DNA of 64,000 nt from Pirellula sp. (GCA_046318795.1 JBKCTT010000154.1:18949-82948); one strand, 5' to 3'. Counted from the stretch's first letter, positions 24,092-46,298 are shown. Made by a program: numbers and translations. Notes: generated by a model not told the origin, from the sequence alone.

Positions 24092-24107
24092 CCAACCACC
24101 TTAACAT

Positions 24108-25712: not shown

Positions 25713-25783
25713 GATATAGTCCTAATGGATTTTAGTTTTGATGGAGTCAGCTGTCGTTATTTGCTTCCAGGGGAAAGAAGTGA

Positions 25784-26692: not shown

Positions 26693-26728
26693 CTTGATTC
26701 CTTTCTTGTAATTCGGTGTAACGATGTG

Positions 26729-26995: not shown

Positions 26996-26997
26996 TT

Positions 26998-28901: not shown

Positions 28902-28928
28902 TTGTTTGACTCCTTCAGTGGGGGATGT

Positions 28929-29780: not shown

Positions 29781-29829
29781 TGCTTGAAACGCAACTTGGG
29801 GGGGCGGTTGTGGATGAACAAACTCGATT

Positions 29830-30259
29830 CGAGTCGCACAAGAATTTTGAAAAATCGAATTTCAGAAAATCGAAATTGCAAATTTGAAAAACGAAAAATG
29901 AAATTTGAGATCTGGACCGGAAAGGCTTCCGTCCCCCATTTCGCATTCTTCGTCCTCTGCGTCCCCCCATTCCACCAATGAAAACATTGGTTAAAACGCA
30001 TTTTTTGACGTCGGGGGACGCAGGGTGCGCTACTTTCTCTATGTAACCGGTCCGTAGGTTTATTCTCCCTACTCTCTCTACTGATTTACCGCCTATTAAA
30101 TCTCTTCTATCTACTTTCTTATTTCTTTCGTCCCCTTCGTCCCCTAAAAGAAAAAGAAGGAAGAAAGATAAGGAAATAGAAGGATTTGGAAGGAAAACGG
30201 GGGACGCAGGGGGGACGGAAAGCCACGAAAAGGGGACGCTGGACAGGAAATGGGGGACG
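29830..30259. other. Putative replication origin of the element: nine GGGGACG iterons in both orientations with AT-rich tracts
   Basis: CGTCCCC at 29930, 29960, 30129, 30138; GGGGACG at 30014, 30200, 30211, 30232, 30253; directly downstream of the primase-helicase stop. Confidence 0.7.
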
Positions 30260-32725
30260 CTAAGCATTTCTTCTCGCCTCCGTTTTCAATTTTTCCAATT
30301 CCAAAACTTGTTCTGTTTTTCGTTTTTCAATTTTCAAATCAAGATCTTTGCAGGTTTCTGCAGAGTCGCTGTTTTCAGAAATGGCAAGGAAGGACCTGCC
30401 ATGCTTCCGAGACGGGTTTCTTTGGAGACGTGTAAGCAGTCCGCATCCAATCAAGCGATCGCACAGCTGGGCAGCGGAACGACCGTTGAATCGCTCTCCT
30501 TGAGCCTGGGAGACCATTTCGGCCAGAGTGTCGAGTTGGACAATGACTCGATAGGGCGGCTTGTATTCGTAGCTCTCGAGCCAACTGTCGACCGTCGCTT
30601 GAATCGTGTTAGCTGACTCGGCATCGCCATCATTGATTTGTTCGCGGAATGCAAGAAGCTCGGCAACAGTGGTTGGATCTTCAAGTCGACTAAGGATCTC
30701 CTTTTGCCAGATCGCATGTCGGCTATAAAGGGGAAACTCCTTTGTTGGTAACGAGAAGAATCTCTTCACATCGGCAATCACATCCCAGTGGTGATTCTCA
30801 ATAAACGATTGAACCTCGTTTATCCAGTTTGGTTTTCTCTCTGGTTGCTTTAGCGTGATCGACACCAACCTCTGCGCCATGTCGCGACTAAAAGTCGCTG
30901 AATTGAATGTGACGAACAGAACGTATCTGTTTGGACGATCGCAGTTGCCAAAATACATCCGATGACCTGACAAGCTTGTCGACGTCATAAGTGCTTCGAT
31001 AGTAGCCGACGAAAACAAATTGGTTTTGATGTTGTCGAGCAAGATCGAGCGACAACTGGAATCACCATTCAGAAGTCGCTTCATGATCTCATCACGCTTG
31101 GCTGTTTGGTCAAAATCGATCGATCCGCCAGTCAGCTTAGTGATCAAATTTACAGCGGTCGTTTTCCCACTTCCCTGACCTTGCAACGAGCCGAAATGGA
31201 ATCCAGGTCGGTGACCTAACGGACCTCCCCAGAACGTTGTAGCGATCGCAGCTCGCAACAGTTCTCTATCCATGGGGGTCGCTGGTGAGAAGTAGTCTAA
31301 AAACTTTTCTAAGTGCTCTCCGGATCCTTCCTTGATCTCTTGATGGACATAGTAAGTCCTCGGCATAGCTGGGAAATGTGGATAAAGCTCCACGCTGTCA
31401 AATGATTCGAGAGCGCTGGAGTGACATAGAGAATCAAAAAACTCATCTCGAGAAACGAAACTAGGACCGGTTTTCCAAGTGACATTAAAGCGTTCACGGA
31501 TCCACCCGAATAATTGAGAGTGCTTGCGAAATGACCTATAGTTTCCAGCGTCAATCGTGAACAGTTCGCCAGCGTTTCTCTTGGGGAAACCTTGATTGAG
31601 CTTGATAATTGTTTGGACGATCTTTGGCAAAGATTCAGCCACCTCTTTGACTTCCTCGACACCATTGGCATCTTTAACTCTTTCCAGCTTGAAGTTGCGA
31701 ATGACGCGACTGTTTCGAATCTCTTCGTCATACTTTTTTGCGTCAAAAAGTTCACTCCCTTCTGCGATCGCAACAAGCTTTTCAAAAGTACCGCCTTCGA
31801 CGTAGAAGTCTCGTAAGTCCTTGCCCTTTTTTTCAACGATCTCAAATGGAAGTAAGACGTTGCGAGTGGGAGCAATATCCGAGAGCTTTCGACACCACCG
31901 GCCGGCCCCAACTTGTCCAGCGGAATCTGCATCGTGAACGACCCAACACTCTTCTGGCTTGAGTGCTTCAAGCATCGGAATGAACCAGGGGGACACCTTT
32001 CTGTCTGATGTGGCTCCATCAGAGTTAGACCATATCAAGAAACGCTTTCCGTTTCTTGGAGTCGCCTCGGTGACACTGGCAAGAAAATCACTAGCGCCTT
32101 CAACCTTAATGCAAATCAGATTTGGAGTGAGCTTGCCAGCAGTAAGCAGTTCGCGGTCTTCGAGTGTTAAAAAAACGCCGTTTCGATCGTATGGGGAATC
32201 TTGCGAAACTTTCGAGTAGACTACCTTACCCGAGACTGGATTCCCCATCTTGCGTTTACTCTTGTCAAACGTCGCTGGATGCTTCGAACCTGTTACTGGA
32301 AAGATGTTCCAGTTGCAGAGAGACAAATTGCGATGACCGTAAATTGGCAGCCCAAAGACTCCCCAAGAAGACCTAAGTCCCCTTGGATACCAGGTTGCGT
32401 ACTTTATGCCAGCCAGTTCAAACGCTTCCGGTTTTAATGGGGGCTTTCTGGACAAAAATTGCAACTGAAGTTTGTGAGGAACTTCTGGCTTGATATCCAG
32501 TTTCACAGGCTTGTGGACGCAGTAACCATCCGACGCGATTTCTTCACGTTTCAGCGGACTGTCGGAATACTTAGGTGCACTTATCTGTTTTATTGAATTA
32601 GAATTCAGGGTGGAAGCCTGTTCCGTCATTCCTGACGAGTTCTGTTCCGTTTCACTTCCACCCTGAATGTTTTCAATTGCCGAATCGGCAAGATCAATAG
32701 TTATGTTTGACTTAATGCATTCCAT
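30260..32725 (-). CDS. Primase-helicase (Toprim + P-loop NTPase), P4 alpha/PICI Pri-Rep-like
   Basis: Toprim VEGASDF and HDADSAG (DxD), 'KGKDLRDF'; Walker A GSGKTT, Walker B ILLDNI; 821 aa. Confidence 0.88.
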   Translation of the reverse strand: MECIKSNITIDLADSAIENIQGGSETEQNSSGMTEQASTLNSNSIKQISAPKYSDSPLKREEIASDGYCVHKPVKLDIKPEVPHKLQLQFLSRKPPLKPEAFELAGIKYATWYPRGLRSSWGVFGLPIYGHRNLSLCNWNIFPVTGSKHPATFDKSKRKMGNPVSGKVVYSKVSQDSPYDRNGVFLTLEDRELLTAGKLTPNLICIKVEGASDFLASVTEATPRNGKRFLIWSNSDGATSDRKVSPWFIPMLEALKPEECWVVHDADSAGQVGAGRWCRKLSDIAPTRNVLLPFEIVEKKGKDLRDFYVEGGTFEKLVAIAEGSELFDAKKYDEEIRNSRVIRNFKLERVKDANGVEEVKEVAESLPKIVQTIIKLNQGFPKRNAGELFTIDAGNYRSFRKHSQLFGWIRERFNVTWKTGPSFVSRDEFFDSLCHSSALESFDSVELYPHFPAMPRTYYVHQEIKEGSGEHLEKFLDYFSPATPMDRELLRAAIATTFWGGPLGHRPGFHFGSLQGQGSGKTTAVNLITKLTGGSIDFDQTAKRDEIMKRLLNGDSSCRSILLDNIKTNLFSSATIEALMTSTSLSGHRMYFGNCDRPNRYVLFVTFNSATFSRDMAQRLVSITLKQPERKPNWINEVQSFIENHHWDVIADVKRFFSLPTKEFPLYSRHAIWQKEILSRLEDPTTVAELLAFREQINDGDAESANTIQATVDSWLESYEYKPPYRVIVQLDTLAEMVSQAQGERFNGRSAAQLCDRLIGCGLLTRLQRNPSRKHGRSFLAISENSDSAETCKDLDLKIEKRKTEQVLELEKLKTEARRNA

Positions 32726-32840
32726 CGCGATAATTCATTGTGCATGAGAACTAACAAGTCGCTTGAAGCAACTTGGAAACGTTGGGTCAAGTCGGTTGGG
32801 GATGCCGGCTTGACCCTTTTTTTATTGGCCGATCTCGCTT

Positions 32841-33830
32841 CTAAATCTCAAGATCTGCCACTGTTGCCGCTTCGACCTTGGCCCTGCGAGTCGGCATGGA
32901 TCCCACAGCCCTGGAAGCGACCTGTTCAGCTTGGAGTCTCTTGGCCTCTGAATCCTTATCTGATGCGTCTACCACTTCAGCAGGTGCAACCGTTGGCTCG
33001 CTTGGCAGCTCGGTGGGCAGCGGTTCAAGATCCCGACCGACTAGCGCATGCTCAAGGTTTCTACGTTGAACTTCAAGTTGCAGATCGAGAAGCCTTCCTT
33101 CGTGGTAGTTGCGTTGCAGCTCAGCGATTACTTCAGGAAGCCTTGCTTCAAGCTTTTTTCGGTCCGCAGGTAATAGTTCGCCACCACCGGACATTGTCAT
33201 GTTGCGATGCAATGACTGCTTGATGTAATTAAGTTCTTTCCTGCCAGATTCCTCAGATGCAAGTTGAGCTTTCTTCTTTTCGATGACGCGATCGTAAACG
33301 CCTTTTTCTGACCTATACTCTTCAGATGGTTGGTATCTTTCTAACATCCTCTGGGCGCCCATAGCGTCTTCAAGCTCGTATCGCGTCTGTCGAGCTTTTC
33401 GATCAAGACGAACATACTCGTCTTCCATCTCCTTTTCTGTTTTCTTCCAATGCTCCTTGTAAGCGTTTCTCTCCTGAAGTTCTTGCTGTTCACGCATTTT
33501 CAGGAACGGAATCTGAGCAGTTTTTCGTGACCATTCAGGCGACGAAAAGTGTATCTCAATCTCGTTTTGTAGACGTTCTGGCGTCCATTCAGAATCTTTC
33601 AACAGTCGAGCAATCTTTTCAGAATTGACTTCGCGACTCTCCCGACGGGCGGATTTGATTTCGGCAGTAATCTCTTTACGAGCATCCTGTTTAATTCGCT
33701 CGGAAGCTTCCGTAATGCTATTTGCGATGTTGCTCGCGATTTTCACGCTGGTTTGAGACAATAAACTCATATGACAATTCCTTGAGGAAGTTAGATTTTG
33801 ATTTGGAAAAACTGGGCGTGTCCTGGGCAC
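32841..33830 (-). CDS. Coiled-coil hypothetical protein
   Basis: E/K/R-rich heptad-like helices; likely start ATG 33770 (MSLLSQ). Confidence 0.7.
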   Translation of the reverse strand: MPRTRPVFPNQNLTSSRNCHMSLLSQTSVKIASNIANSITEASERIKQDARKEITAEIKSARRESREVNSEKIARLLKDSEWTPERLQNEIEIHFSSPEWSRKTAQIPFLKMREQQELQERNAYKEHWKKTEKEMEDEYVRLDRKARQTRYELEDAMGAQRMLERYQPSEEYRSEKGVYDRVIEKKKAQLASEESGRKELNYIKQSLHRNMTMSGGGELLPADRKKLEARLPEVIAELQRNYHEGRLLDLQLEVQRRNLEHALVGRDLEPLPTELPSEPTVAPAEVVDASDKDSEAKRLQAEQVASRAVGSMPTRRAKVEAATVADLEI

Positions 33831-33844
33831 CAGGGAGGGAATAC

Positions 33845-34318
33845 TTACCGAACGTTCGCAGCTGCGACGAGCTTACGACGAACGTTTGGATATTTCTTGG
33901 CGACGATGCAAGCGGCACGAATAGCATCGCACTTAGATCGCTTCATCTCCGAGCGGATGTTCTGTTGCCAGAGGGACTGCAAAGCCTTCAGCTCCTCCTC
34001 TGGGTCTTCTGATTTGGATCGCTTGGACTTCGCCTTTCGCTTGGTGACAGGCTGTTCCACCTCATCATCATCAAGATCTTCATCGAGTTCTTCGTCATCG
34101 ATCTCGGTGTCATCCGAATCAAGATCTTCTTCAAGATCCTCATCCTGGACCTTCTTCTTGGGGTTGGCAGCTCGGACAACTGCAGCGCGAAGTTCTGGAT
34201 GCAGCTTCGACGCTAAAGACGCAGCTCTGATTGGATCCCCCTTCGCAGCTGGCAGTTGATCGCGAATTGCTTTCTGCCAGTCGGCTCTTGCCTCGGATAG
34301 ACTCATATTCTTCTTCAT
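33845..34318 (-). CDS. Hypothetical protein: two repeated helical domains joined by an acidic linker (scaffold-like)
   Basis: WQKAIR..DPIRAA..LHPELRAAVVRAAN vs WQQNIR..DAIRAA..KYPNVRRKLVAAAN; D/E-rich linker. Confidence 0.75.
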   Translation of the reverse strand: MKKNMSLSEARADWQKAIRDQLPAAKGDPIRAASLASKLHPELRAAVVRAANPKKKVQDEDLEEDLDSDDTEIDDEELDEDLDDDEVEQPVTKRKAKSKRSKSEDPEEELKALQSLWQQNIRSEMKRSKCDAIRAACIVAKKYPNVRRKLVAAANVR

Positions 34319-34383
34319 TGGAATTCCCTTTCACGGAATTGGTTGATATGTGGGACAAGTGATTCCTGCCCCTAAATGTGTTG

Positions 34384-34803
34384 TTATGTCAATTCGAGCT
34401 TCGAATTGACTTGGTCGAGAACTATCTGGAATCCGCGTACAACGCCGCGTTCCCAAGCTTCGATCTTTAATGGTGTGACCAGTTGTGTAGTCGGTTCATA
34501 AAGCATGTTGACGATGCTTGGCGGTACGTCGGTACTTAGGAAGACGTACAAATCGAACCCCTCTTCGTCGAAATCAGCAGCTTCGACAACTCGGTCCAAA
34601 TCTGCGTAGGTCATGTGCTCCTTCGAAAATTCGATGCCAGCTTCGACCCCTTGCTCCTTGATCGCTGCCAGGTGCTCTCGACCCTGGGAAACAAGTCGGC
34701 CGATGGTTTTCTCATTGGCAATTACTATGCCCATGTTCATATCCTTACTGAGAAGATAAAGAGACTCATCGAGACCGATGAGTCGGAAGATACGCCAGGC
34801 CAA
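34384..34803 (-). CDS. Hypothetical protein
   Basis: 139 aa ORF in the element's gene run; likely start ATG 34737. Confidence 0.6.
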   Translation of the reverse strand: MAWRIFRLIGLDESLYLLSKDMNMGIVIANEKTIGRLVSQGREHLAAIKEQGVEAGIEFSKEHMTYADLDRVVEAADFDEEGFDLYVFLSTDVPPSIVNMLYEPTTQLVTPLKIEAWERGVVRGFQIVLDQVNSKLELT

Positions 34804-35022
34804 TTAGCCTTGGCAAAGATGCTCAACGTTGTTGCCGCGATCGATTCGACTCGCTGCGAACATGGCGTCAATGTCGGCGCTGTCGATCCGAACTAAACGA
34901 CCGACCTTGCTTGCCGGAAGCTCCCCTTGAGAGATGAGGTTGCGAACATGGACTTTCGAACAGTTCAGAACCTTTGCCGTTTGCTCAATGGAGAGTTTTT
35001 CCGAGACGATTTGATGCTTCAT
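34804..35022 (-). CDS. Excisionase-family helix-turn-helix protein (HTH_17/Xis-like)
   Basis: LSIEQTAKVLNCSKVHVRNLISQGELPASKVGRLVRIDSADID. Confidence 0.88.
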   Translation of the reverse strand: MKHQIVSEKLSIEQTAKVLNCSKVHVRNLISQGELPASKVGRLVRIDSADIDAMFAASRIDRGNNVEHLCQG

Positions 35023-35121
35023 TTGTTGATCCCCTTATTGGAAATGCTGACTAAGGCGGTGTGCCTTCGATGTCAACAAATGTTAGGGATCAAGCAGGTT
35101 CAATCTACATGCTTCGCAACA

Positions 35122-35247
35122 GGTGGGAATCTTGGTGGGGCAAAATAGGTGGGAGAGTTTTCGTTGCTACTGAGTAAACCAGATGCTAAGGAGTGCAATC
35201 AAAAAATCTCGTTTTTTTCTTTAGGTGGGAAAGTTGGTGGGAGAGTT
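35122..35247. promoter_or_regulatory. Array of GGTGGG-core 12-bp direct repeats upstream of the xis-like gene
   Basis: GGTGGGAGAGTT 35148 and 35236, GGTGGGAAAGTT 35224, GGTGGGAATCTT 35122, GGTGGGGCAAAA 35134. Confidence 0.55.
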
Positions 35248-35265
35248 GGCCCTGGTTTCCACTAC

Positions 35266-36057
35266 CTATTTTTGATCTTTCCAAGCTAAGAACTGGATCA
35301 TGAAGTCGCAGAACTCAACGGGGCTTGAAGTAAAACTGCTCGTGCGTTGCCTTCGATAGACCTCTTCGAGATTCCCAAGCTTTCGACCAAACTGCTTTGT
35401 TAGTGCTTCCTCACTCATGCTTGGCGGAAGAGTGCCTAAGTTCTTTTGATGCAGCTCTTTTGCAGACTCTTCTCGGCTGCGATTCCCGTTATCAGGTTTT
35501 TGATTTACGTAATGAACAATTCCACATTGAATCCATTCAGACTGTTTAGACCAGTTTTTACGAAACCTCTGGAAGTGATCTTCGAGAGATTTGTCGAATG
35601 GTTTAGGTTTGTTTTCAAGCCTCGATTCTATGGCTACTGCTACTCCTTCGAAACCCGCTGCAATGTACGCCATGCGATCTGGATCAAACACCGGTCCAGC
35701 ATAGTCATAGAAGATGGGTATGAAGCGAGATTCAGCATTGAACTCGCCCGGGATGTAGGTCTTGGCGTCCAGCAAATCGGGCGATGTATCGACGTCGACT
35801 AGGATCTCTTGGAAGTCGCGAACGTAATGTTCCGTCTGATAACCGACCGCGATGTCCATCTTCTTACCAAAGGGAATATCGGCTAACTCTGGAAGCAAAC
35901 CGAGACTGACAGCTTCCTCGAAATGATGTTCGATTGTCAAAAGATAATCGGATGAGATGTGAGAAGTTGCAGATTCGAATCTTCTCGCATGAGCATAAAA
36001 ACGCTTCACCAATACGCTAGCGCGTTCCCTGACCGATACTTCGCTCGGCATGAGCAT
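35266..36057 (-). CDS. Hypothetical protein (candidate element regulator)
   Basis: 263 aa ORF; possible C-terminal HTH-like segment; no recognisable family. Confidence 0.65.
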   Translation of the reverse strand: MLMPSEVSVRERASVLVKRFYAHARRFESATSHISSDYLLTIEHHFEEAVSLGLLPELADIPFGKKMDIAVGYQTEHYVRDFQEILVDVDTSPDLLDAKTYIPGEFNAESRFIPIFYDYAGPVFDPDRMAYIAAGFEGVAVAIESRLENKPKPFDKSLEDHFQRFRKNWSKQSEWIQCGIVHYVNQKPDNGNRSREESAKELHQKNLGTLPPSMSEEALTKQFGRKLGNLEEVYRRQRTSSFTSSPVEFCDFMIQFLAWKDQK

Positions 36058-36229
36058 AACAGACTCCTTGTGTGATCAAAGGTTGGTTGCCAGCCCTCTG
36101 CCCACAAGGAGTGCAAAGCAGAATGCTGGCAACCATTCGGGACCGTCGCCCCTACCTAAATTTGTATCATCCGTCGACGACACAGAACAAAATCGTACCG
36201 GATCCGATCGAATCGGAAAATCAAAAAAT

Positions 36230-36490
36230 TTGCGTGCGAAAAAATCTCGCAACGAAAACGAAAATTCGAAAAACGAGAATTGTAAAAAATCTCTGTTTTC
36301 AATTCTAAATTTGTAAAAAATCTCAATTGTGAGACAAAATGTCACAGTTTTTTCATAAACCTAACTCTTTCGACGAAACGCGAGCCTATGCGACCGCATC
36401 GATTTAGGCAAAGGCTGGAAGGGACCCAGACTTGCAAGCGTAGGCGTTAGTTTCGGTGCCTCTCGCGTCGATTTAGACCCTACCCCCTAT
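36230..36490 (-). other. Candidate cos/pac-like packaging site
   Basis: Minus strand GGGTCCCTTCC (36417-36427) resembles the lambda cosQ region GGGTCCTTTCC; palindrome ATGCGACCGCAT 36388-36399; AAAAAATCTC boxes at 36239, 36284, 36315. Confidence 0.35.
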
Positions 36491-36736
36491 CGTTTGTTGC
36501 TCAGCTTGGCGGATGCGTTAAACGTGATTTTAGGGGCTCTTTGTGATGTGGAATTAACCTTGGTAGTCGTTTTTTGTGCTCAAAAACATAATTGGATTGA
36601 GTGCCAGGCCTTCAGGCCGTGTCTCTGGATCCAGCGACGATCTATCGAGCGACAACCGATCGCTTTAAGGAAAAAAAGAGGCGATAGGTTTCTCACCCAC
36701 TACCGCCCCCCATGCCAAAGCGTTGACGATGTGACC

Positions 36737-37186
36737 TTACGCCACCGCTTTGGCAAATTTTGTTGATAGAATCGGCTCGGATTGTTGCGACTCGATCAGT
36801 CCTTGGTCAGCTGCGAATCGTGCCAGGCCTCGCATGGCTTCCAATCGCAGCGATCGAGCCTTGGCCGATGCCAATTCACCTTTGACTCGAGCCATGAAGA
36901 GAGCGATGGTATCGACGTCCAGATCGTTCAGATTTGGTGTACGTTGAAGCATCTCTTCGAGAACGAAGATTGCGTCGCGATACGCTTCGACCGTCGAGTC
37001 TGACATGACCATGCCGTATCGACCGACATACATCTCCAATAGCTCAATAAGGCTCATCTCCTCGCGTTGTTGCTGCATTCGATTCGCCTGGTTGACTCTC
37101 ATGCCAAGCCACTTGTGCAACTTCTCGGAATCCTCGATCGATAGGCCAGCTGCGTCGATCATCAATTGGATATCTCTCAGTTCCAT
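36737..37186 (-). CDS. Stand-alone integrase core-binding (SAM-like) domain protein
   Basis: LIELLEMYV..MSDSTVEAYRDAI..NLNDLDVDTIALFM..KARSLRLEAMRGLARFAADQGLI; no catalytic domain follows. Confidence 0.65.
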   Translation of the reverse strand: MELRDIQLMIDAAGLSIEDSEKLHKWLGMRVNQANRMQQQREEMSLIELLEMYVGRYGMVMSDSTVEAYRDAIFVLEEMLQRTPNLNDLDVDTIALFMARVKGELASAKARSLRLEAMRGLARFAADQGLIESQQSEPILSTKFAKAVA

Positions 37187-37188
37187 GA

Positions 37189-37500
37189 TTACTCAACCTC
37201 GCTTTCGATTTGCAAGCGGCTGATTTCTGGGTGGGTCTCGGTGATCGAATCCCAGCGATCCTGAAACGATCCTTGCTGCAACGCTGCAGATATATGTTCG
37301 TCAATCCACTCACCACAAGATGCTTCAACAAACTGTTGCTTTTCGTCGTAACCTACCGCAGCTCGGAGGTGACAAGCGACGATACCGAGTTCGGTCGGAT
37401 CTTTAACTAGACCTCGATCAATGGCATCAGCAGCATTTCGGAAAAACGCCGCCAGCATCGCTCGGTCGTTCTCGGTAAAAATTCGTTCTAGCTTTGACAT
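37189..37500 (-). CDS. Hypothetical protein
   Basis: 103 aa ORF, 2 bp from the downstream ORF. Confidence 0.6.
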   Translation of the reverse strand: MSKLERIFTENDRAMLAAFFRNAADAIDRGLVKDPTELGIVACHLRAAVGYDEKQQFVEASCGEWIDEHISAALQQGSFQDRWDSITETHPEISRLQIESEVE

Positions 37501-37608
37501 GATAAAAACCCTTGTTGTCTGTTGGGGATGTAAAGCTTGGCGATGTAACAGACCGACACCGCTTCGCTGGGCTGCCAGGGGAAAAAGAATCCCTCGGCTT
37601 GTGCGGTG

Positions 37609-37932
37609 TTATTTGGGCTTTCTGGGATGACTCGTTGTCGCTGCGACCTCGGATCGCTTCCGACGTCTACGCTTGGGCCCGGTGCCGACGTCGACAATCT
37701 GGGCAATCATGGCTCGTTGAGTGCTTGTGTATCGTGTCCACCGTTTGGCCAGGCGGGTGACAATGCGTGTCAGCTCAGGATCCGAGATGCGAACGACCAA
37801 TTCGTCGTTGGAGTGGGCGGTGCTATGAAGAGACTTGCCGGTGATTGAGCAAATTTGAGGTTTCGTGCCGACTGCTTCGGAATTTGCTTCGGGTCGAATT
37901 TTTACGCAAATTCCCTGGGAATCTGAGCCTTT
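37609..37932 (-). CDS. Orphan integrase C-terminal extension (in frame with int across attP)
   Basis: Frame is open from the attR core (37932) to the stop at 37609; offset 15,284 keeps the int frame; contains DPELTRIVTRLAKRW...RAMIAQIV. Confidence 0.6.
   Translation of the reverse strand, partial: KGSDSQGICVKIRPEANSEAVGTKPQICSITGKSLHSTAHSNDELVVRISDPELTRIVTRLAKRWTRYTSTQRAMIAQIVDVGTGPKRRRRKRSEVAATTSHPRKPK
37873..37894 (+). repeat. Putative integrase arm-type site, right arm
   Basis: TGCTTCGGAATTTGCTTCGGGT, 21/22 identical to 22769-22790. Confidence 0.7.
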
Positions 37933-38068: not shown

Positions 38069-38116
38069 ATAGGTCGAATGAGTCCTGTAGGACCTATATG
38101 TTCCATTGGTCCTATG
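38069..38116 (+). repeat. Degenerate 9-bp tandem repeat upstream of the four-helix-bundle gene
   Basis: ATAGGTCGA/ATGAGTCCT/GTAGGACCT/ATATGTTCC/ATTGGTCCT. Confidence 0.5.
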
Positions 38117-38143
38117 CGCCCTTTTTTCTTTAGGAGTTACACC

Positions 38144-38725
38144 ACGAATGGTTTTACTCCAACGCACGGCCGTCACGAGGATCTGCTGTCCTTTCGCAAA
38201 GCTCGCATTGTGTACGACTGTACTATTCGCTTCGGTGCACGCTTTCTCGATCAACGTGACCGCACCTTGGACCAGATGGTGCAGGCAGCGCGGTCAGGAA
38301 AACAAAACATCCTAGAAAGCTGCATGGCCTGTGCTACTTCCAAAGAAACAGAGATCAAACTGGTCAATGTGGCTCGAGCTAGCTTGGAAGAATTGTTAGA
38401 AGACTACCGCGATTTTCTATGAACTCGGGGGCATCCTCTTTGGGAAAAGGATTCCCGCAAAGCCTCGTTCGTTCGAAAACTGGGGGCAAAGAAAGATTTG
38501 CCCTTTGAGATCTATAGGACCTATATTGATACTCGTTCCGGCGACATTGTCACTAACGTTCTGGTCTGCCTGATTCATCAGTCTAACTACCTTCTCGACC
38601 AACAAATCCGAGCTTTGGAAAAGGCCTTTCTCGCCGAAGGTGGCTTGCGCGATCGCATGACCCGCGCCCGCTTGGAAGCCCGCCGCGAACAGCAAAAAAG
38701 GTCCGCAATAATCCACTCTTACTAG
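38144..38725 (+). pseudogene. Four-helix-bundle (suffix-domain type) protein with an in-frame TGA at 38420-38422
   Basis: 'DRTLDQMVQAARSGKQNILE..ARASLEELLEDYRDFL*TRGHPLWEKD..LIHQSNYLLDQQIRALEKAFLAEGGLRDRMTRAR'; both ORF pieces share a frame; RBS AGGAG precedes ACG rather than ATG. Confidence 0.8.
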
Positions 38726-38966
38726 ACTGCACGTTGGTTTTCGGTCCAGCAGGAGCTTTTTAAAAGCAAGTTAAATAAGCCTGGCTAATCTAGTCGTTTT
38801 TGGCCAGAATTTTTGGACTTTCACTAAAGGCGACTTACTTTTTTGAGCCCCAAGCTCGGCACGGCTCAAATGGTTCACAGCCCCGAACCTTTAGTTTGAG
38901 TCGCGGCAAGCCCTCAACCAGGCCGAGCTACATTCCATAAACCCTTTTGTAGAAGGCCCCCTTTCA

Positions 38967-39491
38967 ATGAAGATTCAGTCTCTTCTTCGTTCGGCTATTG
39001 CAGCCGCTCTCGTTTGTTCCCCTACTCTATTGATGGCTCAAACCGGCAATCAAGGCTTCACGGTTGTCGTGCCTCAAAGCCTTAGCATCACCGCTCCCAC
39101 GGCTGTTAGTCTGACTCACGATCAATCCGATAATCCTCAAGCGTTTCCCGATCAAGCGTGGGTGGTTCGCGGCAATGTTCGAAATGGCGTGACCGTCACG
39201 TTTGCAACCGCAGCTCCTTTCGTTCACTCAGAAGACAACACGTTCAAGCGAAACGCAAAGTTGGAGCTAGCTGTCGGGACCACCCAAGGTCCAGCGGCAT
39301 GGCAAATTGACACTGCCTCCGATACTACCGATTTTGCCGCCAACGACAACATTGCACAAGTCGGTGCATCCAGCAACGGTGTTGGCCGTGCGAATTTGAA
39401 TCTCAAGGTAACATTCGTCACAGAAGATTTCAGCTTATTTGCTGCTGGTAACTACGTCACTACCGTAACCGGTACCATAGCTGCTAAGTAA
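38967..39491 (+). CDS. Secreted pilin-like subunit (chaperone-usher/Csu-CS1-like Ig fold)
   Basis: Signal peptide (LMA-Q), N-terminal alternating strand QGFTVVVPQSLSI, C-terminal AGNYVTTVTGTI motif. Confidence 0.65.
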   Translation: MKIQSLLRSAIAAALVCSPTLLMAQTGNQGFTVVVPQSLSITAPTAVSLTHDQSDNPQAFPDQAWVVRGNVRNGVTVTFATAAPFVHSEDNTFKRNAKLELAVGTTQGPAAWQIDTASDTTDFAANDNIAQVGASSNGVGRANLNLKVTFVTEDFSLFAAGNYVTTVTGTIAAK

Positions 39492-39508
39492 TTGGCTTCA
39501 ATCGAAAA

Positions 39509-39553
39509 GCTAGCAAACAGAAAGTGCTATATTGCACTTTCTGTTTTGCTAGC
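39509..39553 (+). terminator. Strong hairpin between the pilin and secretin genes
   Basis: GCTAGCAAACAGAAAGTGC-TATATT-GCACTTTCTGTTTTGCTAGC (19-bp stem, one bulge). Confidence 0.75.
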
Positions 39554-39645
39554 GATGAGCGTGTTCTGCAGATGACCAAAAGCGATGTTGTTGCGGTTTA
39601 CCGCAATTTGTAAAAACCGCGTACGATCCCGCTTGTCACCGCATC

Positions 39646-41226
39646 TTGAATTCGCTTTCCATGCCTCGTAGCACCCAGAAATCTACTTTGTACTGCATCC
39701 ATGACTGGGCTAGGCATTGCCGACGGGTCACGTACGTAGTAGCTCTCGTATTGGTCTCAGGCGTTGGCTGTGTTTCACCGAAAAAGGTAGAGCGCAAAAC
39801 GATTGAACAGTTGTATAAAGAAGCAATTAAGGAGTCGATCGATCGCCCCCCTGTGATCCAACCAGCGACGATCAATTCGAGGTTGAGCGGAGAACCATCA
39901 CCTCCGTCTGGAAGTTATCTGGCTTCGGCAACAACCCCGTTTAATCCTGTGTCTTCACAAATATCGCAAGCGTCATGGCAAGTTGTCGACGCGGGTCGCG
40001 ATCCTTTGGATGAGCGGATATCGGAGATTTTCGAACAAACGGACATTCAAGAAGCTTTATCAATCTTATCCACCGCGGCCAAGCAATCGATCATAGTAGA
40101 TGATTCCGTTGGTGGAATAACGAGCGCTCAAATCGAAAACGACTCATTTGAGCAGGCACTTGAGAAAGTGCTGATGCCTTTAGGTCTGGTCTACGCCAAA
40201 CGTGGTGATAAGTACATTGTATCGACGGGAACACCTGATTCACCCTTGTTCTCACAGGTGGCTGATCGGTTTCAGTATCAGCCTCAGAATCACTCGGCTC
40301 AGTCACTTGTGGGTCTGCTACCTCCTCGATACAAACCTTATTATCAAGTTTCGAATGATCGAGACATGATTGTCATAGAGGCCCACTCCACAAAGGCTAA
40401 GGAGATCCTCGAACGTTTGGAGGAGTTGGATCAGCCCGTTCCACAAGTGGAATTAGAGGCGATCGTTTGCGTGACGTCTCCCGATAAAGGGTTCCGCTTT
40501 GGGCTCGATTGGGGGCATGTCGTCGGAGTTCAAGGCCTTGATAGTTTGAAAGCCGGCATGACTGGCTTATCCTTTAGTGGCACTGCTAGTCGCGAAGGAT
40601 TACGCGATACGTTTGCCGATTTTGCGGTGACCTCAGCGTTCGTTCGGCTGCTCGCTCAAGAGGGTTACATCACCATTCGAGCTGCACCGCGTGTCACCAC
40701 AAAGGATGGAGAAAAAGCGCAAATTTCTATAAGTCGCGAAACCTTTTTCAGTTTGCAACCCGCTAATAGTAATCTATTGTTCCGGCAAGATGTACAGAAA
40801 GTTGAGTCTGGTATATCGCTCGATATCATACCCAGAGTTTATGGTGATATGGTTTCTTGTCGTATCGCCAAAGCCGAGGTCAGCGAAGATATTCGAACTC
40901 AAGATTCACGTACAGAGTTAACAACCAATCCCTTCCCAATCATCAATCGTAGACAAGTTTCGACGGATGTTGTGGTAAGAGATGGGCACACTGTGGTCAT
41001 TGGAGGACTTGTCCAAAGGCAGACTGTGGATCGAGTCAACCGAATTCCTGGATTGAGTCGAATACCTTTGCTGGGAAAATTATTTCAGACAGTCGAGAAG
41101 CAAGAGCAAGATGCCGAGGTGGCGATTTTTATCTCACCACGGATCGTGCCCGCGGAATCACCTACAGTCAATACAAATTATCGGGCGCAGTCTTCGTCGC
41201 TGTTGCCTATCCCCATGAATCCCTAA
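39646..41226 (+). CDS. Outer-membrane secretin (GspD/PilQ family), probable lipoprotein
   Basis: Lipobox-like SGVG-C; N0/STN-like and N3-like domains; 'VVRDGHTVVIGGL', 'IPGLSRIPLLGKLF', 'AIFISPRIV'. Confidence 0.92.
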   Translation: MNSLSMPRSTQKSTLYCIHDWARHCRRVTYVVALVLVSGVGCVSPKKVERKTIEQLYKEAIKESIDRPPVIQPATINSRLSGEPSPPSGSYLASATTPFNPVSSQISQASWQVVDAGRDPLDERISEIFEQTDIQEALSILSTAAKQSIIVDDSVGGITSAQIENDSFEQALEKVLMPLGLVYAKRGDKYIVSTGTPDSPLFSQVADRFQYQPQNHSAQSLVGLLPPRYKPYYQVSNDRDMIVIEAHSTKAKEILERLEELDQPVPQVELEAIVCVTSPDKGFRFGLDWGHVVGVQGLDSLKAGMTGLSFSGTASREGLRDTFADFAVTSAFVRLLAQEGYITIRAAPRVTTKDGEKAQISISRETFFSLQPANSNLLFRQDVQKVESGISLDIIPRVYGDMVSCRIAKAEVSEDIRTQDSRTELTTNPFPIINRRQVSTDVVVRDGHTVVIGGLVQRQTVDRVNRIPGLSRIPLLGKLFQTVEKQEQDAEVAIFISPRIVPAESPTVNTNYRAQSSSLLPIPMNP

Positions 41227-41271
41227 CCACTCCACCCTATAATTCAGGACTTCAATAAGTTCGTACTCATT

Positions 41272-42939
41272 ATGGTCTATAAACCTGAGATTCGGCGCCA
41301 TAGTTTCGCTATTATCCTTTGCGTTTTGATTGCTTGTGTGGGGCTTGGTGCAAACGCGTTCGCACAACAAGATCCAAATAAAACGAAACAATCGGGAACT
41401 CCTGGCCAGATCTCGGTTGAGGAAACGTTTGCGCCCTCGTTTCAGATCGAGCCACTTTCCCATCGAATTTCCGGTAGAACTGGAGATGCACTCCCCTTTA
41501 CCTTTGATTTAAACGCGGAATTCGACGGCGAAATCGAGGTCATGCCAATGGGGTTGAGGCAAGAATTATCTGGGCAGATTCTTCATGACGTCGACGCAAA
41601 AACGGCAGACTTCGTTACGCTAATCACTCCAACCAAATTGCAACTTTCCGCAAACAAAGCTGCGACGATCGAGGGCTTTGTCAGATTACCAAAATCGGAT
41701 GCAAAGCATCACTCTGTCGGCATTCTGGTTCGAGATTTAGGACGCGATCCTGGACTAACGACCAAGCGTGCTGCCGACGGTTCTATTACAACTCAGGCAG
41801 CTGTGAAGTTTATGACGCAATACGTATTGCGACTTGATCTAGACTTGGAATCGGCTCGAGGCGAGGGTGCGCAACAGTTACGATTGGAACCACCTAGGTT
41901 GATATCCCAAGATGGACGCCCTCGGTTTCAATTGGTTCTTTCTAATCCAACCGATTCTACATTCGAGTTTGAGGCGCGAGCCAGAATTCGTTCTTCGCCA
42001 AGTGATCGTTCGAACAAGCCACTGCGTTTAGCACTCCCTATTCGATCCGATATTGAAGACGAGTCTCGATACATCTGCCGTATTCTACCGCAATCCAAAG
42101 TCAGACTGGAAGAGTTTCTCCCCGAGGCTATTGCAAGCGGAACTTATGAAGTCGATATAGAGATTCTGGTCGGTGACAAAGCTGTTGTGAAAAAGGAGTT
42201 TCCACTCCCTGTTGATGCGAGAGAGTTTCCGGCGCAAGAAGTCCTTATCGCACAGGTTGGTGAAGATGTTCAAGTGTCGCCCGCCCAAATCGAACTTTCC
42301 CAGATTCGAGGGGGAAATCGGAGGGTTACCGTCCTTTTGAAAAACAGTGGCCCTCACACAAAGTCGGTAAAGTTAGTTCCAAAATCTGAAAGCGGATTAG
42401 AGTTGGGGGAAATATCGGTCCAACCCGGGGAAGTGAGTTTGGCACCTGGTGCATCTCGCAAGATCTCGTTGACGCTAAAAGGACAACCTCAATCGTCTGA
42501 GAGTATTCGCTTTGGTTTTCTACATGTTGAATCGACCTCTACTAAATCGGCCGAGGTGGAACATAAGAAGCTACCGCTCGCGATGGTCTTGAAAAAGCTT
42601 CCGTCTTCAGAACTAGAAATCGCCCCTTTGGTTTGGGATGGCTCGGGAGAGAAGGTTGGTTTCCGTACCAAAATTTCGCATTCTAGTGTTGGTCATATCC
42701 CAATCGACGCTCGACTGTCTATTCTCTCTGAATCGGGCTATCGGGCTGCCGTACTCGGTGGGTTCGGAAAGTGGGCGATGCCGAATTCCACATTCCCCAT
42801 TTTCTTCCCCATTGAGAACCCATTAAGCCCGGGTGAATACACGTTACGTTGCGAAGTTAAGAGTCCTGACGGTCCACCAAGAACCTACGATCAAAAGATC
42901 ACTGTGACCGATCTAGATAACGCAAAAAGTGCAAGGTGA
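41272..42939 (+). CDS. Secreted tandem Ig-fold protein, PapD/DUF916-like pilus chaperone
   Basis: Signal peptide (AFA-Q); four beta-sandwich modules: 'FQIEP..TKLQLSANK..VRLP', 'LVLSNPT..ILPQS..SGTYEV', 'VSPAQIEL..LLKNSG..SLAPGASRKI', 'LSPGEYTL'. Confidence 0.6.
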   Translation: MVYKPEIRRHSFAIILCVLIACVGLGANAFAQQDPNKTKQSGTPGQISVEETFAPSFQIEPLSHRISGRTGDALPFTFDLNAEFDGEIEVMPMGLRQELSGQILHDVDAKTADFVTLITPTKLQLSANKAATIEGFVRLPKSDAKHHSVGILVRDLGRDPGLTTKRAADGSITTQAAVKFMTQYVLRLDLDLESARGEGAQQLRLEPPRLISQDGRPRFQLVLSNPTDSTFEFEARARIRSSPSDRSNKPLRLALPIRSDIEDESRYICRILPQSKVRLEEFLPEAIASGTYEVDIEILVGDKAVVKKEFPLPVDAREFPAQEVLIAQVGEDVQVSPAQIELSQIRGGNRRVTVLLKNSGPHTKSVKLVPKSESGLELGEISVQPGEVSLAPGASRKISLTLKGQPQSSESIRFGFLHVESTSTKSAEVEHKKLPLAMVLKKLPSSELEIAPLVWDGSGEKVGFRTKISHSSVGHIPIDARLSILSESGYRAAVLGGFGKWAMPNSTFPIFFPIENPLSPGEYTLRCEVKSPDGPPRTYDQKITVTDLDNAKSAR

Positions 42940-43032: not shown

Positions 43033-43950
43033 TCATGCACGGCGCTTCGCGTTTCGTCGCTTGAACCACCATATTGCAGCAGCACCTGCACTCAAGAGTA
43101 TTCCGCTCGCGGGCTCGGGAACCGCGGAAAATGACTCGACGGAAACTCGATAGTGTGAAAAATTTCCACTCCCATCTCCTACGGAACGGAATAGTAGAAA
43201 CTTATCTTCTTCCCAGGGGAGCAAGTGAGCGTTGGGGAAGCCAGGCTGCGAGCTTGTGGTCGATATGACTCCACCCTGTGCTTGGCCAGCCGGTCTTCCA
43301 ATCGCATCGTCAATTGTAAAATATTGTAAGCTGTCTCGGATGCCTACTGTGGCATCAATATTACCAGCAGAGAATCCTGCGAATCCGAATACAATGTCAT
43401 CCCTTCTGAATTGAAAATTAGACAGGACGGTGTCTGCCTCAAACCAGACCGTTTGAAAGCTTCGTGCAAATTGATTGGTAATAGTATCACCAGCCGAAAA
43501 GTCATTGAGCAGAAATACCTGTGACCAAGTTGCGGCAACGTATTGCCCCGGCTTGTTTGAGAAAAAGATTCCTTGTTGTGGCCCTGCTCCGTCTGCATCG
43601 GAAAGCACGTAGATGTCGTCCCAAAAACCTGCGATTCGAGGTGCCGAATTTGTTGCGAATGACTCGGAGAAGAAATCATTGCCGGATATATTACTCTGAC
43701 TCAAGTATCCGTTTTCAGCCAGCCAGATGCTCGAAACGTTTTGCCCAAAGAAACGGCCACCAAATCCGCTTAGATTGACCTCTACTGCACCATCTCCACT
43801 GATCGTTTGCTTGGTTCCAAGCTCATTTGTTCCAAGGATTAAGCCACCAAGAGTTCGTGAATTAAGTGCATTTAGAAGGATTGCAAGACCCGTTGCCAAT
43901 ACTACAAAGCCCCGGCGAAATGCTCCATGATATTTCCAAAGTTCCATCAT
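43033..43950 (-). CDS. PEP-CTERM sorting-signal surface protein with a nidogen-like domain
   Basis: C-terminal VPEPASGILLSAGAAAIWWFKRR; 'IWLAENGYLS', 'IAGFWDDI', 'ATWSQV', 'SFQTVWF'. Confidence 0.85.
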   Translation of the reverse strand: MMELWKYHGAFRRGFVVLATGLAILLNALNSRTLGGLILGTNELGTKQTISGDGAVEVNLSGFGGRFFGQNVSSIWLAENGYLSQSNISGNDFFSESFATNSAPRIAGFWDDIYVLSDADGAGPQQGIFFSNKPGQYVAATWSQVFLLNDFSAGDTITNQFARSFQTVWFEADTVLSNFQFRRDDIVFGFAGFSAGNIDATVGIRDSLQYFTIDDAIGRPAGQAQGGVISTTSSQPGFPNAHLLPWEEDKFLLFRSVGDGSGNFSHYRVSVESFSAVPEPASGILLSAGAAAIWWFKRRNAKRRA

Positions 43951-45374: not shown

Positions 45375-46298
45375 ATGACAGAATACGATGATCCTTGGAA
45401 GGAGGTTCTGGATGCCTATCTAAAGGGCTTCCTTGAACTTTGCTTGCCCGATATTCACAACGGGATTGATTGGAGCAGTCCGATCGAAAATCACGAACAA
45501 GAGTTGCCACACTTGTTTCCTAAAAGTGTGACTCCGGGTCGGGTTGCTGACAAACTTTTTCGAGCTCAATTCCGTGGCCATGCTTTGCCAACGTGGTTCT
45601 TGATTCACACGGAGGTTCAAGTCACCAGGCAGTCTGATTTCGCAGAAAGAATGTTCACCTGTTACTACCGTATTTTGGATCGCTTCCAAGAGCCCGTCGT
45701 ATGTATCGGAGTATTGGGCGACGACTCAAAGTCTTGGCGACCTAGTAGTTGGCAAGTTGATACGCTGGGCTGTAAGCTGCATTTTTCCTATCCGACTGTG
45801 AAGCTTCAGGATTTCGCGAATCAAATCGAAGAGCTCAAGGAATCGACGAATCCATTTGCGACTGTGATTGCGGCCCATTTGCGAGCTCAAGGTACCTCTA
45901 ACTCGCCAGACACCCGATTTCGCTTTAAGATTGAGTTGGCTCGTAGTCTTTATGAAAAGTTGTGGCCAGCGGATCAAGTGAGGAGTCTGTTTCGTTTTAT
46001 CGACTGGGTGATGGACTTGCCCGTCGATTTTGAGTTACAATTTAGATATGCGGTGCAGCAAATCGAAAAGGAGAAAAACATGCCATACGTAACTTCCATC
46101 GAGAGAATCGCCAAAGGTGAAGGAAAAGCCGAGGGGAAAGCGGAAGGTAAGGCGGAGGGAAAAGCGGAAGGTAAGATTCAACTTCTGCAGGAATTACTCG
46201 GTTTGAGAGTGATGACCGACGATGAGTTTGAGTCAATGAGCCCACAGCAGTTAGCGGAGTTGCTGGTATCGCTGCGTCAACAATTCGACGCGCGTTAG
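45375..46298 (+). CDS. Rpn/YhgA-like PD-(D/E)XK nuclease (putative transposase family)
   Basis: YDDPWKE, ADKLF, LIHTEVQ, FAERMF, NPFA; C-terminal EGKA x5 repeat (46119-46175) after MPYVTSIER. Confidence 0.85.
   Translation: MTEYDDPWKEVLDAYLKGFLELCLPDIHNGIDWSSPIENHEQELPHLFPKSVTPGRVADKLFRAQFRGHALPTWFLIHTEVQVTRQSDFAERMFTCYYRILDRFQEPVVCIGVLGDDSKSWRPSSWQVDTLGCKLHFSYPTVKLQDFANQIEELKESTNPFATVIAAHLRAQGTSNSPDTRFRFKIELARSLYEKLWPADQVRSLFRFIDWVMDLPVDFELQFRYAVQQIEKEKNMPYVTSIERIAKGEGKAEGKAEGKAEGKAEGKIQLLQELLGLRVMTDDEFESMSPQQLAELLVSLRQQFDAR

Follow-up and report, generated by a model that had tools for sequence, protein, structure and literature searches.

A conserved three-gene module of Pirellula that probably builds or exports a surface fibre by an undescribed route

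To our knowledge, none of the textbook pilus pathways (chaperone-usher, type IV, curli, type V, sortase and conjugative) pairs donor-strand subunits with a secretin. In chaperone-usher (CU) pili, the folding of subunits during strand exchange is established as the energy source for assembly, and the CanA and TasA fibres illustrate that donor-strand polymers can form without an usher. All the characterised secretins that we know of work with an inner-membrane ATPase machine, and some of them, such as HxcQ, BfpB and TcpC, are self-piloting lipoproteins. An usher-free pilus has been newly described in Enterococcus faecalis: donor-strand exchange in this WxL (Elr) pilus is driven by a WxLIP-type chaperone, with no usher involved, and the system is reported to be confined to Bacillota (Sleutel et al., bioRxiv 10.64898/2026.10.17.759780).

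A 64,000-nucleotide stretch of DNA from Pirellula sp. (hereafter the window) carries a conserved and undescribed module of three genes, encoding a small pilin-like subunit, a secretin and an exported protein of four beta-sandwich domains (Table 1). This module probably builds or exports a surface fibre by an undescribed route. The three co-oriented reading frames and the hairpin behind the first of them are found as the initial annotation had them, and its statement that no usher, ATPase, prepilin peptidase or inner-membrane platform gene lies next to them holds among the window proteins scanned.

Table 1. Features of the module and its convergent neighbour, in window coordinates
Feature	Position	Strand	Description
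Major pilin-like subunit	38967..39491	+	ORF, 174 aa
Strong hairpin	39509..39553	+	Terminator- or attenuator-like, directly 3' of the major subunit gene
Short lipoprotein secretin	39646..41226	+	ORF, 526 aa
Exported four-beta-sandwich-domain protein	41272..42939	+	ORF, 555 aa
PEP-CTERM protein, 305 aa	43033..43950	-	PF07589, E 6.5e-5

Products of the module and the hairpin

The 174-aa protein starts with a Sec-type signal peptide (residues 1-24, ending in LLMA and followed by QTG), and its body is all-beta in an AF2 monomer model (pLDDT 89.9). Behind the signal peptide lies a conserved amphipathic segment, QGFTVVVPQ (residues 29-37), which is a putative N-terminal donor strand; this QxFxVxVP segment ranks among the most conserved parts of the protein, with Q29, V33, V35 and P36 invariant in 35 homologs. 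The C-terminal motif claimed for the protein is borne out as AAGNYVTTVTGT, a region in which G161, Y163, G169 and T170 are invariant in the same set. The family comprises 119 clusters at 90% identity and 308 representatives at 50%, all of them unnamed; the protein has no Pfam match at E<=1 and belongs to no NCBIfam family, a profile search of the PDB gave no significant match, and no sequence-level relation to the chaperone-usher families was found.

At the level of fold, almost all the best PDB matches of the model (Foldseek) are donor-strand fibre subunits, namely CfaB, CanA (7uii, the second-best), CS17, FimG, Csu, Caf1 and PapE at the top, with TasA also among the matches. These matches are weak (best E 1.2e-3, TM 0.4-0.5, about 13% identity). 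The proposal of a self-complementing Ig pilin thus keeps its structural side, the likeness to donor-strand subunits, at this modest level, while polymerisation itself is inferred. As for an incomplete Ig fold completed by a donor strand, the CU-pilin matches are accompanied by an N-terminal strand that is conserved and yet missing in one class of paralogs: at least 16 second-position paralogs start at profile position 37 or later, right after the signal peptide, and therefore do not contain the QxFxVxVP segment. The minor paralog directly upstream of the secretin is of this kind. The motif of the pilin N-terminus, in the form SQTFTVTVN-LAL-AP, recurs inside the tandem repeats of two giant proteins, where it would form the junction between the last strand of one Ig-like repeat and the first of the next, as a donor strand would. 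Conversely, confidence in the monomer model is high from residue 31 onward, where the fold is compact, and the N-terminal strand could thus be part of a complete, non-polymerising fold.

Judged by its sequence, the 526-aa protein is unambiguously a bona fide secretin, as had been proposed: it matches PF00263 over model positions 2-168 of 169 (E 4.1e-37, 127.8 bits for a cut-off of 27.5), with the secretin domain at residues 336-501. Weak N-terminal matches to STN (1.7e-5) and N0 (3e-3) cover residues 129-193, an N3-like region spans about residues 240-330, and an S/P-rich linker is visible by eye; the overall domain layout is as short as that of phage pIV. The proposed lipobox is also present, with Cys42 (SGVGC) followed by a K-x-E-R-K-T motif, and its GC is kept in nearly all full-length homologs on inspection by eye (42 of 81 by a strict regular expression). 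In contrast to members of the PilQ, GspD, MshL and SctC subfamilies, the protein gives only partial NCBIfam matches, all far below the curated cut-offs (at best PilQ, 133 bits for a cut-off of 284, and GspD, 132 bits for a cut-off of 351), and in PDB sequence searches PilQ and GspD match it about equally well. In a secretin tree, the module secretins form a tight cluster, far from the one other alignable secretin of this genome, and the loci group by taxon and by module architecture.

Four Ig-like modules had been announced in the 555-aa protein, and the AF2 model (pLDDT 85.5) indeed has four beta-sandwich domains, the last of which ends the protein with no predicted C-terminal helix. By hhalign, domains D2 and D4 are homologous (probability 93%) and D1-D2 is colinear with D3-D4 (probability 69%), which together indicate a tandem duplication of a two-domain unit. 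Foldseek matched the model to the WxLIP structures 9i1y (E 5e-9, TMt 0.49) and 9i25 and to the CU chaperone YadV (5ghu; E 2e-8, TMt 0.56, 222 columns); a two-domain Ig-like chaperone fold is thereby found, and found twice. The earlier description as a duplicated PapD/DUF916-DUF3324 chaperone therefore stands for the fold and the duplication, whereas family membership stays below threshold: the most frequent weak Pfam match of the family, PF11797, falls below threshold in all 17 of the 35 homologs that it matches (best 1.3e-6), and the window's protein scores 16.4 bits where the cut-off is 28.9. When fragments were scanned, both D2 and D4 matched PF11797, and D3 matched ASH/Cep192 families; PF06030 was never matched by the protein, its homologs or its fragments, and the 'PapD-like' PF14874 appeared once among 35 members, also below threshold. 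No Pfam or NCBIfam model was reached above cut-off by the family, and a profile search of the PDB with the protein gave no match at all. The most conserved block, FMTQYVLRLD (residues 180-189), follows a low-confidence loop and runs into the last strand of domain 1. We take this protein to be a chaperone or assembly factor working in the periplasm.

Behind the subunit gene, the hairpin has a loop of 6 nt and a stem of 19 bp interrupted by one bulge, and its best 60-nt window reaches -30.9 kcal/mol. A hairpin lies at the same position in 37 non-identical related intergenic regions, where its sequence is unrelated; its median energy is -28.2 kcal/mol, versus -17.1 kcal/mol in shuffles, and 76% of the regions are at or below -25 kcal/mol, versus 6% of shuffles. 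In most loci, a strong hairpin is thus found 3' of the first (major) pilin gene.

Synteny, distribution and absent components

The trio recurs in more than 80 related loci and hence is not due to chance, so that the grouping proposed for the window extends to other genomes. It is kept in 24 of 25 loci examined. Of 72 related loci, 69 have the secretin gene directly 5' of the 555-aa gene, and contig ends cut the remaining three. One to three pilin paralogs adjoin the pair in 56 of about 62 evaluable loci (~90%), in at least four gene orders; in six loci, the upstream sequence is long enough but the secretin and 555-aa genes have no pilin beside them. Across the neighbourhoods of 25 loci, these three families are the only conserved ones. 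The convergent PEP-CTERM gene is a conserved neighbour in the window's sub-clade only, its homologs adjoining the module in L010, L012, L022, L024 and L025 and in 18 of 72 loci of a larger set. In the window, the ~12 kb downstream encode this protein together with TspO, GH32, an epimerase, MFS, DHDPS and an Na/Ca exchanger.

The distribution of the module is sporadic: it was found in 35 of 301 genomes of the family (~12%) and in 3 of 301 genomes across the phylum, its own included. Cultured carriers are Rubripirellula obstinata CECT 8602, Novipirellula herctigrandis CA13 and Planctomycetaceae bacterium SH139. It had been suggested that the module accounts for planctomycete surface fibres; crateriform-associated fibres are described as a general trait of planctomycetes (PMC5394234), and a module present in ~12% of the family's genomes cannot explain them in general.

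The check for usher genes that had been suggested found none in this genome or in 31 other carriers, all 32 of which were negative for PF00577 with a positive E. coli control; the PapD-family chaperone model (PF00345, PapD_N) likewise had no match in this genome. No recurrent ATPase or inner-membrane component was seen beside the module, whether in 25 loci or in the set of more than 80, and no prepilin peptidase or pseudopilin is linked to it across loci, the Peptidase_A24 gene four genes away in L012 being non-recurrent. No LPxTG protein is conserved in the neighbourhoods either. This genome does encode nine T2SSE-family ATPases and four other secretins, all on other contigs.

Likeness to described systems

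Like the WxL pilus, the module lacks both usher and ATPase, and it combines a small beta-sandwich subunit that carries an amphipathic strand at its N-terminus with an Ig-like chaperone unit whose two domains have the WxLIP (DUF916/DUF3324) fold. It differs in that its subunit has no WxL domain (no Pfam match, and no WxL structure among the 50 fold matches listed), its chaperone-like protein is a tandem duplicate below Pfam cut-offs that is soluble and, with no C-terminal helix predicted, has no C-terminal anchor, there is no LPxTG anchor or sortase logic, and the host is a diderm in which a secretin is added. The likeness to CU pili, both archaic (Csu) and alternate (CFA/I, CS17), lies in the fold matches of the subunit (CfaB, CS17, CsuA/B, FimG, Caf1, PapE), its C-terminal G-x-Y-x-T-V-T strand, a partner resembling the periplasmic chaperone YadV, and an operon logic in which the major subunit comes first, followed by a hairpin and then by the machinery and minor subunits. 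In contrast to these pili, the outer-membrane component is a secretin in place of an usher, there is no PapD_N in this genome, and four domains, rather than two, make up the chaperone-like protein.

Like secretin machines (GspD, PilQ, RcpA, SctC, pIV), the module has a true secretin domain with an N0/N3-type N-terminal part, and lipidation predicted from the lipobox likens it to liposecretins. Unlike them, it has no ATPase, pseudopilin, prepilin peptidase or inner-membrane platform linked to it across more than 80 loci, and its secretin is instead partnered with a chaperone-like protein and an all-beta subunit exported by Sec; the subunit's Sec signal peptide, in place of a class III signal peptide, also sets it apart from T2SS, T4P and Tad systems. 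As for Pyrodictium cannulae (CanA) and Bacillus TasA, the likeness is one of subunit fold, with no sequence relation found; those fibres, in contrast, need not pass an outer membrane and involve no secretin.

A possible assembly route and its rivals

The reading that we favour, to which we give slightly better than an even chance, is that a chaperone assists the assembly of a donor-strand fibre and that a lipoprotein secretin dedicated to this fibre lets it through the outer membrane, with polymerisation and passage through the secretin both inferred. The 174-aa subunit, with the signal peptide visible in its sequence, would be exported by Sec and captured in the periplasm by the 555-aa protein through its two tandem PapD/WxLIP-like chaperone units, the conserved amphipathic strand that ends domain 1 filling the groove of the subunit. 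Subunits would then join head to tail by donor-strand exchange, the QxFxVxVP strand of one completing the Ig-like fold of the next, and the thin polymer would leave through the 526-aa lipoprotein secretin in the usher's place. An ATPase would be unnecessary, because subunit folding during strand exchange would pay for assembly. The hairpin may keep subunit mRNA in excess over that of the machinery, and the additional pilin paralogs of related loci may act as minor subunits; the paralog upstream of the secretin, which has no donor strand, could be the first (distal) subunit of the chain, as would be expected of such a subunit. More tentatively, and at somewhat less than an even chance, these steps may amount to a 'chaperone-secretin' pathway of diderms, in which a tandem WxLIP/PapD-like chaperone primes and polymerises Ig-fold subunits and feeds the fibre through a lipoprotein secretin, independently of any usher, ATPase and inner-membrane platform. 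In such a pathway, the two chaperone units may replace the two chaperone-subunit binding sites of the usher.

Synteny and the missing usher and ATPase would fit equally well with dedicated export of a protein that does not polymerise, the 555-aa protein carrying small all-beta proteins to their own secretin; these would be monomeric or sheet-forming surface or secreted proteins (an adhesin, coat or binding protein), and no fibre would be made. The compact monomer model from residue 31 and the weakness of the structural likeness to pilins speak for this explanation, which we nonetheless regard as unlikely, since it leaves unexplained why donor-strand fibre subunits make up almost all of the best fold matches, why the N-terminal amphipathic strand is so strongly conserved and specifically missing from one class of paralogs, and why the first gene is followed by a hairpin suited to excess expression. 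Less likely still, the secretin and the 555-aa protein could be the outer-membrane end of a T2SS- or T4P-like machine encoded elsewhere, with the 174-aa protein as cargo or accessory. The inner-membrane partners of characterised secretins lend this some weight, and planctomycete secretion genes are often scattered; given the nine T2SSE-family ATPase genes on other contigs, alongside the four other secretins, a remote inner-membrane or ATPase partner for the module secretin is possible. Against such a machine stand the absence of any conserved inner-membrane or ATPase gene beside the module in more than 80 loci, a subunit that is all-beta with a Sec rather than a prepilin-type signal peptide, the tight subfamily formed by the module secretins, and the unrelated neighbourhoods into which the module moves as a unit.

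The immediate upstream neighbour of the module in the window is an integrated element (~22.6-37.9 kb) with a tRNA gene at its flank and small ORFs, one of the two scanned having a phage-integrase SAM-like domain. Taken with the pIV-like brevity of the secretin, this would suit a module that a mobile element or filamentous phage has carried as cargo or left as a remnant. The other loci examined, however, place the module among unrelated housekeeping genes, the 25 loci share no conserved phage or mobility family, and the grouping of the secretin tree by taxon and architecture points to vertical descent, so that we consider such an origin very improbable.

The subunit and 555-aa families reach no Pfam or NCBIfam cut-off, and both could therefore be defined as new families; with only three genes and cultured carriers, the module is directly testable. 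If the donor-strand fibre exported through a secretin is real, it would add a new pilus assembly pathway, and its secretin would be the first known without an ATP-driven inner-membrane machine, meaning that a secretin can serve an energy-independent, folding-driven process. The module would then be a diderm relative of the usher-free WxL pilus of Gram-positives, thereby linking this newly described system to the chaperone-usher logic of Gram-negatives.

Gene content, context and distribution of the module

The three co-oriented open reading frames (ORFs) reported in the initial annotation were recovered exactly where it had placed them; they encode a pilin-like subunit, a secretin and a chaperone-like protein of 555 aa. 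A first set of 25 loci was assembled around matches to the subunit, and 24 of these carry all three genes together. All-against-all clustering of the ORFs of these loci returned only the subunit, secretin and 555-aa families as being present in 24 to 25 of them, and no recurrent ATPase, inner-membrane platform, peptidase or usher was found among the 25 loci. A second set of 72 loci, retrieved via the 555-aa protein and partly overlapping the first, is restricted to Planctomycetota and derives mostly from Pirellulaceae. In this set, the secretin gene lies immediately 5' of the 555-aa gene in 69 loci, the remaining three being cut by contig ends, and one to three adjoining subunit paralogs are present in 56 of the 72; in six loci whose upstream sequence is long enough to judge, no subunit gene adjoins, and a single genome (L017) has an orphan one. 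Gene order varies between PIL-SEC-P555 (for subunit, secretin and 555-aa gene, respectively), PIL-PIL-SEC-P555(-PIL), SEC-P555-PIL, SEC-P555-PEPCTERM-PIL and a divergent arrangement, P555<PIL< >PIL>SEC. That the trio is kept through such rearrangements argues for a functional unit. The absence of an usher from the locus, also part of the initial annotation, extends to whole genomes: PF00577 was found neither in the window genome (96% complete), which also lacks a match to PapD_N (PF00345), nor in 31 other carrier genomes.

Features of the window in and around the module
Feature	Positions	Strand	Remarks
tRNA gene	22594-22667		only Rfam match in the whole window
Integrated element	22594-37932		element follows the tRNA gene, which these positions include, and ends just upstream of the module
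ORF with stand-alone phage-integrase SAM-like domain	36737-37186		within the integrated element
114-aa ORF	38078-38422	+	between integrated element and module
Subunit gene	38967-39491	+	174-aa ORF
Hairpin	39509-39553		19 bp, 18 nt after the subunit stop codon
Secretin gene	39646-41226	+	526-aa ORF
555-aa gene	41272-42939	+	555-aa ORF
PEP-CTERM protein gene	43033-43950	-	305 aa, convergent with the module
307-aa ORF	45375-46298	+	perfect (GKAE)x5 repeat near the C-terminus

The window genes flanking the module are unrelated to it. The other loci lack the integrated element, which therefore does not belong to the module. The 114-aa ORF shows weak, sub-threshold matches to a four-helix-bundle/23S rRNA intervening-sequence protein family (PF05635, E 1e-3; TIGR02436, 22 bits vs a 24-bit cut-off). 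Downstream lie genes for the PEP-CTERM protein, TspO, a GH32 protein, an epimerase, an MFS protein, DHDPS and a Na/Ca exchanger; the 307-aa ORF has no Pfam match at E<=0.001. Homologs of the PEP-CTERM protein adjoin the module in 18 of the 72 loci, all from the sub-clade of the window, and the gene is sometimes flanked by the 555-aa gene on one side and a subunit gene on the other. Its product might be an anchor or a decoration of the fibre. The PEP-CTERM protein of the window contains a RIAGFWDD motif, which we take to resemble NIDO domains, although Pfam gave no match to such a domain.

Apart from the trio, the next commonest real gene of the first set is that of a NarL/LuxR-type response regulator (REC and LuxR-type HTH domains, as judged from sequence). 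It lies immediately 5' of the module in 9 of the 25 loci (L015, L016, L018, L019, L020, L023, L026, L027 and L028), where it precedes the first subunit gene, and suggests regulation of the module by a two-component system; no regulator of this type is encoded in the window. Two further loci depart from the usual layout: a 534-aa ORF (positions 258-1862) takes the usual place of the subunit gene upstream of the secretin gene in L036, while in L012 (12243-13996) the 555-aa gene is split into ORFs of 156 and 405 aa and the PEP-CTERM homolog is split too. In both loci, the module may be in decay. L012 and L010, whose subunits are 63% and 64% identical to that of the window, respectively, are different module copies in the same assembly (GCA_036704275.1, contigs of 0.78 Mb and 6.46 Mb), which probably combines two or more planctomycete genomes.

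The strong hairpin that the initial annotation had described after the subunit gene is present, its best 60-nt window folding at -30.9 kcal/mol, and searching positions 38400-39700 against Rfam at E<=1 matched no riboswitch or other RNA element. Most loci have a strong hairpin 3' of the first subunit gene, without conservation of its sequence: the median fold energy of 37 distinct intergenic regions is -28.2 kcal/mol, vs -17.1 kcal/mol in shuffles, and 76% of these regions, vs 6% of shuffles, reach -25 kcal/mol or lower. Where a second paralog is present, the hairpin lies between both subunit genes and the second one abuts the secretin gene. This position suits a structural subunit required in large excess.

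Folds and conserved segments of the three proteins

The subunit begins with a Sec-type signal peptide; its mature form starts with QTGNQGFTVVVPQSLSITAP and ends with AAGNYVTTVTGTIAAK. Its family comprises 119 clusters at 90% identity and 308 representatives at 50% identity; those clusters that name an organism all come from Planctomycetes, and wherever a protein name is given, it reads 'hypothetical protein'. Aligning 35 homologs showed several positions never to vary, among them Q29, V33, V35 and P36 (N-terminal segment) and G161, Y163, G169 and T170 (C-terminal strand). Comparison of the profile with PDB sequences gave only chance-level matches, to ribosomal protein uS5m (E > 0.1). The structural model (pLDDT 89.9) has no strong match in the PDB either; the best one is CfaB of CFA/I (E 1.2e-3, TMq 0.45), followed by CanA cannulae, CS17, FimG, the Csu pilus, the PapG pilin domain, Caf1 and PapE. 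Nearly all of these best matches are subunits known to polymerise by donor-strand exchange, a striking enrichment but one made up of individually weak matches.

An N-terminal QxFxVxVP segment with alternating hydrophobic residues ranks with the best-conserved regions of the subunit. In multi-subunit loci, it is kept in the first gene and in the gene following the 555-aa gene, and is missing from the paralog immediately upstream of the secretin gene. At least 16 such paralogs start at profile position 37 or later, directly after the signal peptide, and others have a different start, G-[FL]-R-V-[DE]-[VM]. In a fibre assembled by strand donation, just one kind of subunit, that at the distal end, has to lack a donor strand; FimH, PapG and CfaE are examples. 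Two giant repeat proteins, P0303 (5738 aa) and P0326 (7149 aa), gave 51 and 53 matches to the subunit profile, respectively, almost only at N-terminal positions 9-57 and via SQTFTVTVN-x-LAL-x-AP. This sequence can be read as the place where the last strand of an Ig-like repeat meets the first strand of the repeat that follows; on such a reading, the N-terminus of the subunit would look like the last strand of a preceding domain.

The 555-aa protein has a signal peptide, and its model (pLDDT 85.5) consists of four beta-sandwich domains (D1 to D4, approximately 57-192, 209-314, 327-439 and 448-545), in agreement with the four Ig-like modules described initially. According to hhalign, D2 is homologous to D4 (93%) and D1-D2 is colinear with D3-D4 (69%), which makes the protein a two-domain unit duplicated in tandem. 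The model resembles long chains of ASH/PapD-like Ig domains found in ciliary proteins, and its best-covered two-domain targets are WxLIP, the WxL-pilus chaperone, of Enterococcus faecium (9i1y, E 5e-9, TMt 0.49; 9i25, bound to a WxL protein) and the chaperone-usher (CU) chaperone YadV (5ghu, E 2e-8, TMt 0.56). At the sequence level, the profile has no match among PDB sequences, and the commonest Pfam match is PF11797 (WxLIP_HBD, formerly DUF3324), in 17 of 35 family members with a best E of 1.3e-6, all below the cut-off. Fragment scans placed PF11797 on D2 and D4, and ASH/Cep192/HYDIN families on D3. The family numbers 80 clusters, and a repeat profile search recovered essentially the same 80 proteins, with no further reach. 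Its most conserved block, A-x3-F-x-TQY-x-LR-x-D, in which F180, T182, Y184 and R187 are invariant, leads in the model from a lower-confidence loop (about 156-182) into strand 183-192, the last strand of D1, with alternating hydrophobic residues. In its position and character, this strand is like the G1 donor strand of CU chaperones. A LIAC sequence in the signal peptide raised the possibility of a lipoprotein, which was rejected as the family consensus shows no conserved Cys.

The 526-aa protein is, as initially annotated, a secretin (PF00263, E 4e-37; STN and N0 matches are weak), with a lipobox Cys at the end of its signal peptide; nearly all homologs likewise show a GC lipobox, with a basic motif after it. 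It scores far under the curated cut-offs of PilQ, GspD, MshL and SctC and is about equally distant from the solved PilQ and GspD structures. The module secretins group into one close-knit subfamily, in whose tree the branching reflects taxon and module architecture. The one alignable secretin among the four others of the window genome sits on a very long branch of this tree, which speaks to distinctness, not to a rooted position among secretin classes.

A possible secretin-dependent, usher-less fibre pathway

The closest known system is the WxL/Elr pilus of E. faecalis, a donor-strand polymer that is built without an usher, for which the membrane-anchored DUF916/DUF3324 chaperone ElrE provides priming and nucleation, and which is reported to be confined to Bacillota (bioRxiv 10.64898/2026.10.17.759780). 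The planctomycete module shares with it the chaperone fold and the usher-free logic, but its subunit is not a WxL domain, its chaperone-like protein is duplicated and soluble, and its host is diderm, a secretin being added. The module does not belong to the WxL system, because its proteins stay below the Pfam criteria, nor to the CU pathway, because it has no usher and no PapD-family sequence, nor to the T2SS, T4P, Tad or T3SS, because no ATPase, platform or prepilin signal is linked to it. A full-text literature search combining secretin and donor strand found no such pathway described.

Of the hybrid fibre-assembly pathway proposed in the initial annotation, the usher-less combination of pilin-like, chaperone-like and secretin genes has held up, and the mechanism is unproven. 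In outline, the subunit would be exported by Sec and captured, via groove complementation, by one chaperone-like unit of the 555-aa protein; donor-strand exchange would occur on the periplasmic side of the secretin, and a thin fibre would exit through it, powered by folding energy as in CU pili. More speculatively, the doubled chaperone unit might allow a single protein to hold both the last-incorporated and the incoming subunit, which is the job of the N- and C-terminal domains of the usher.

That the module represents a new class of pathway is proposed tentatively, its chances being somewhat below even. The same genes could serve as a dedicated export route for a surface protein that does not polymerise, which we regard as unlikely, or as the outer-membrane module of a machine encoded elsewhere. 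Nine T2SSE-family ATPase genes located elsewhere in the window genome speak for such a distant machine, which is nonetheless improbable in our estimation. A phage or mobile-element origin is hardly credible, as the other loci sit among unrelated housekeeping genes.

Crateriform-associated fibres are known from planctomycetes (PMC5394234), and the initial annotation had considered the module a candidate for surface fibres of this phylum. Its distribution is patchy (35 of the 301 genomes and 19 of the 126 genera of the family; 3 of 301 genomes across the phylum, including that of the window), which rules it out as the genetic basis of crateriform-associated fibres in general. Being undescribed, compact and found in cultured strains, the module is a good target for experiments.
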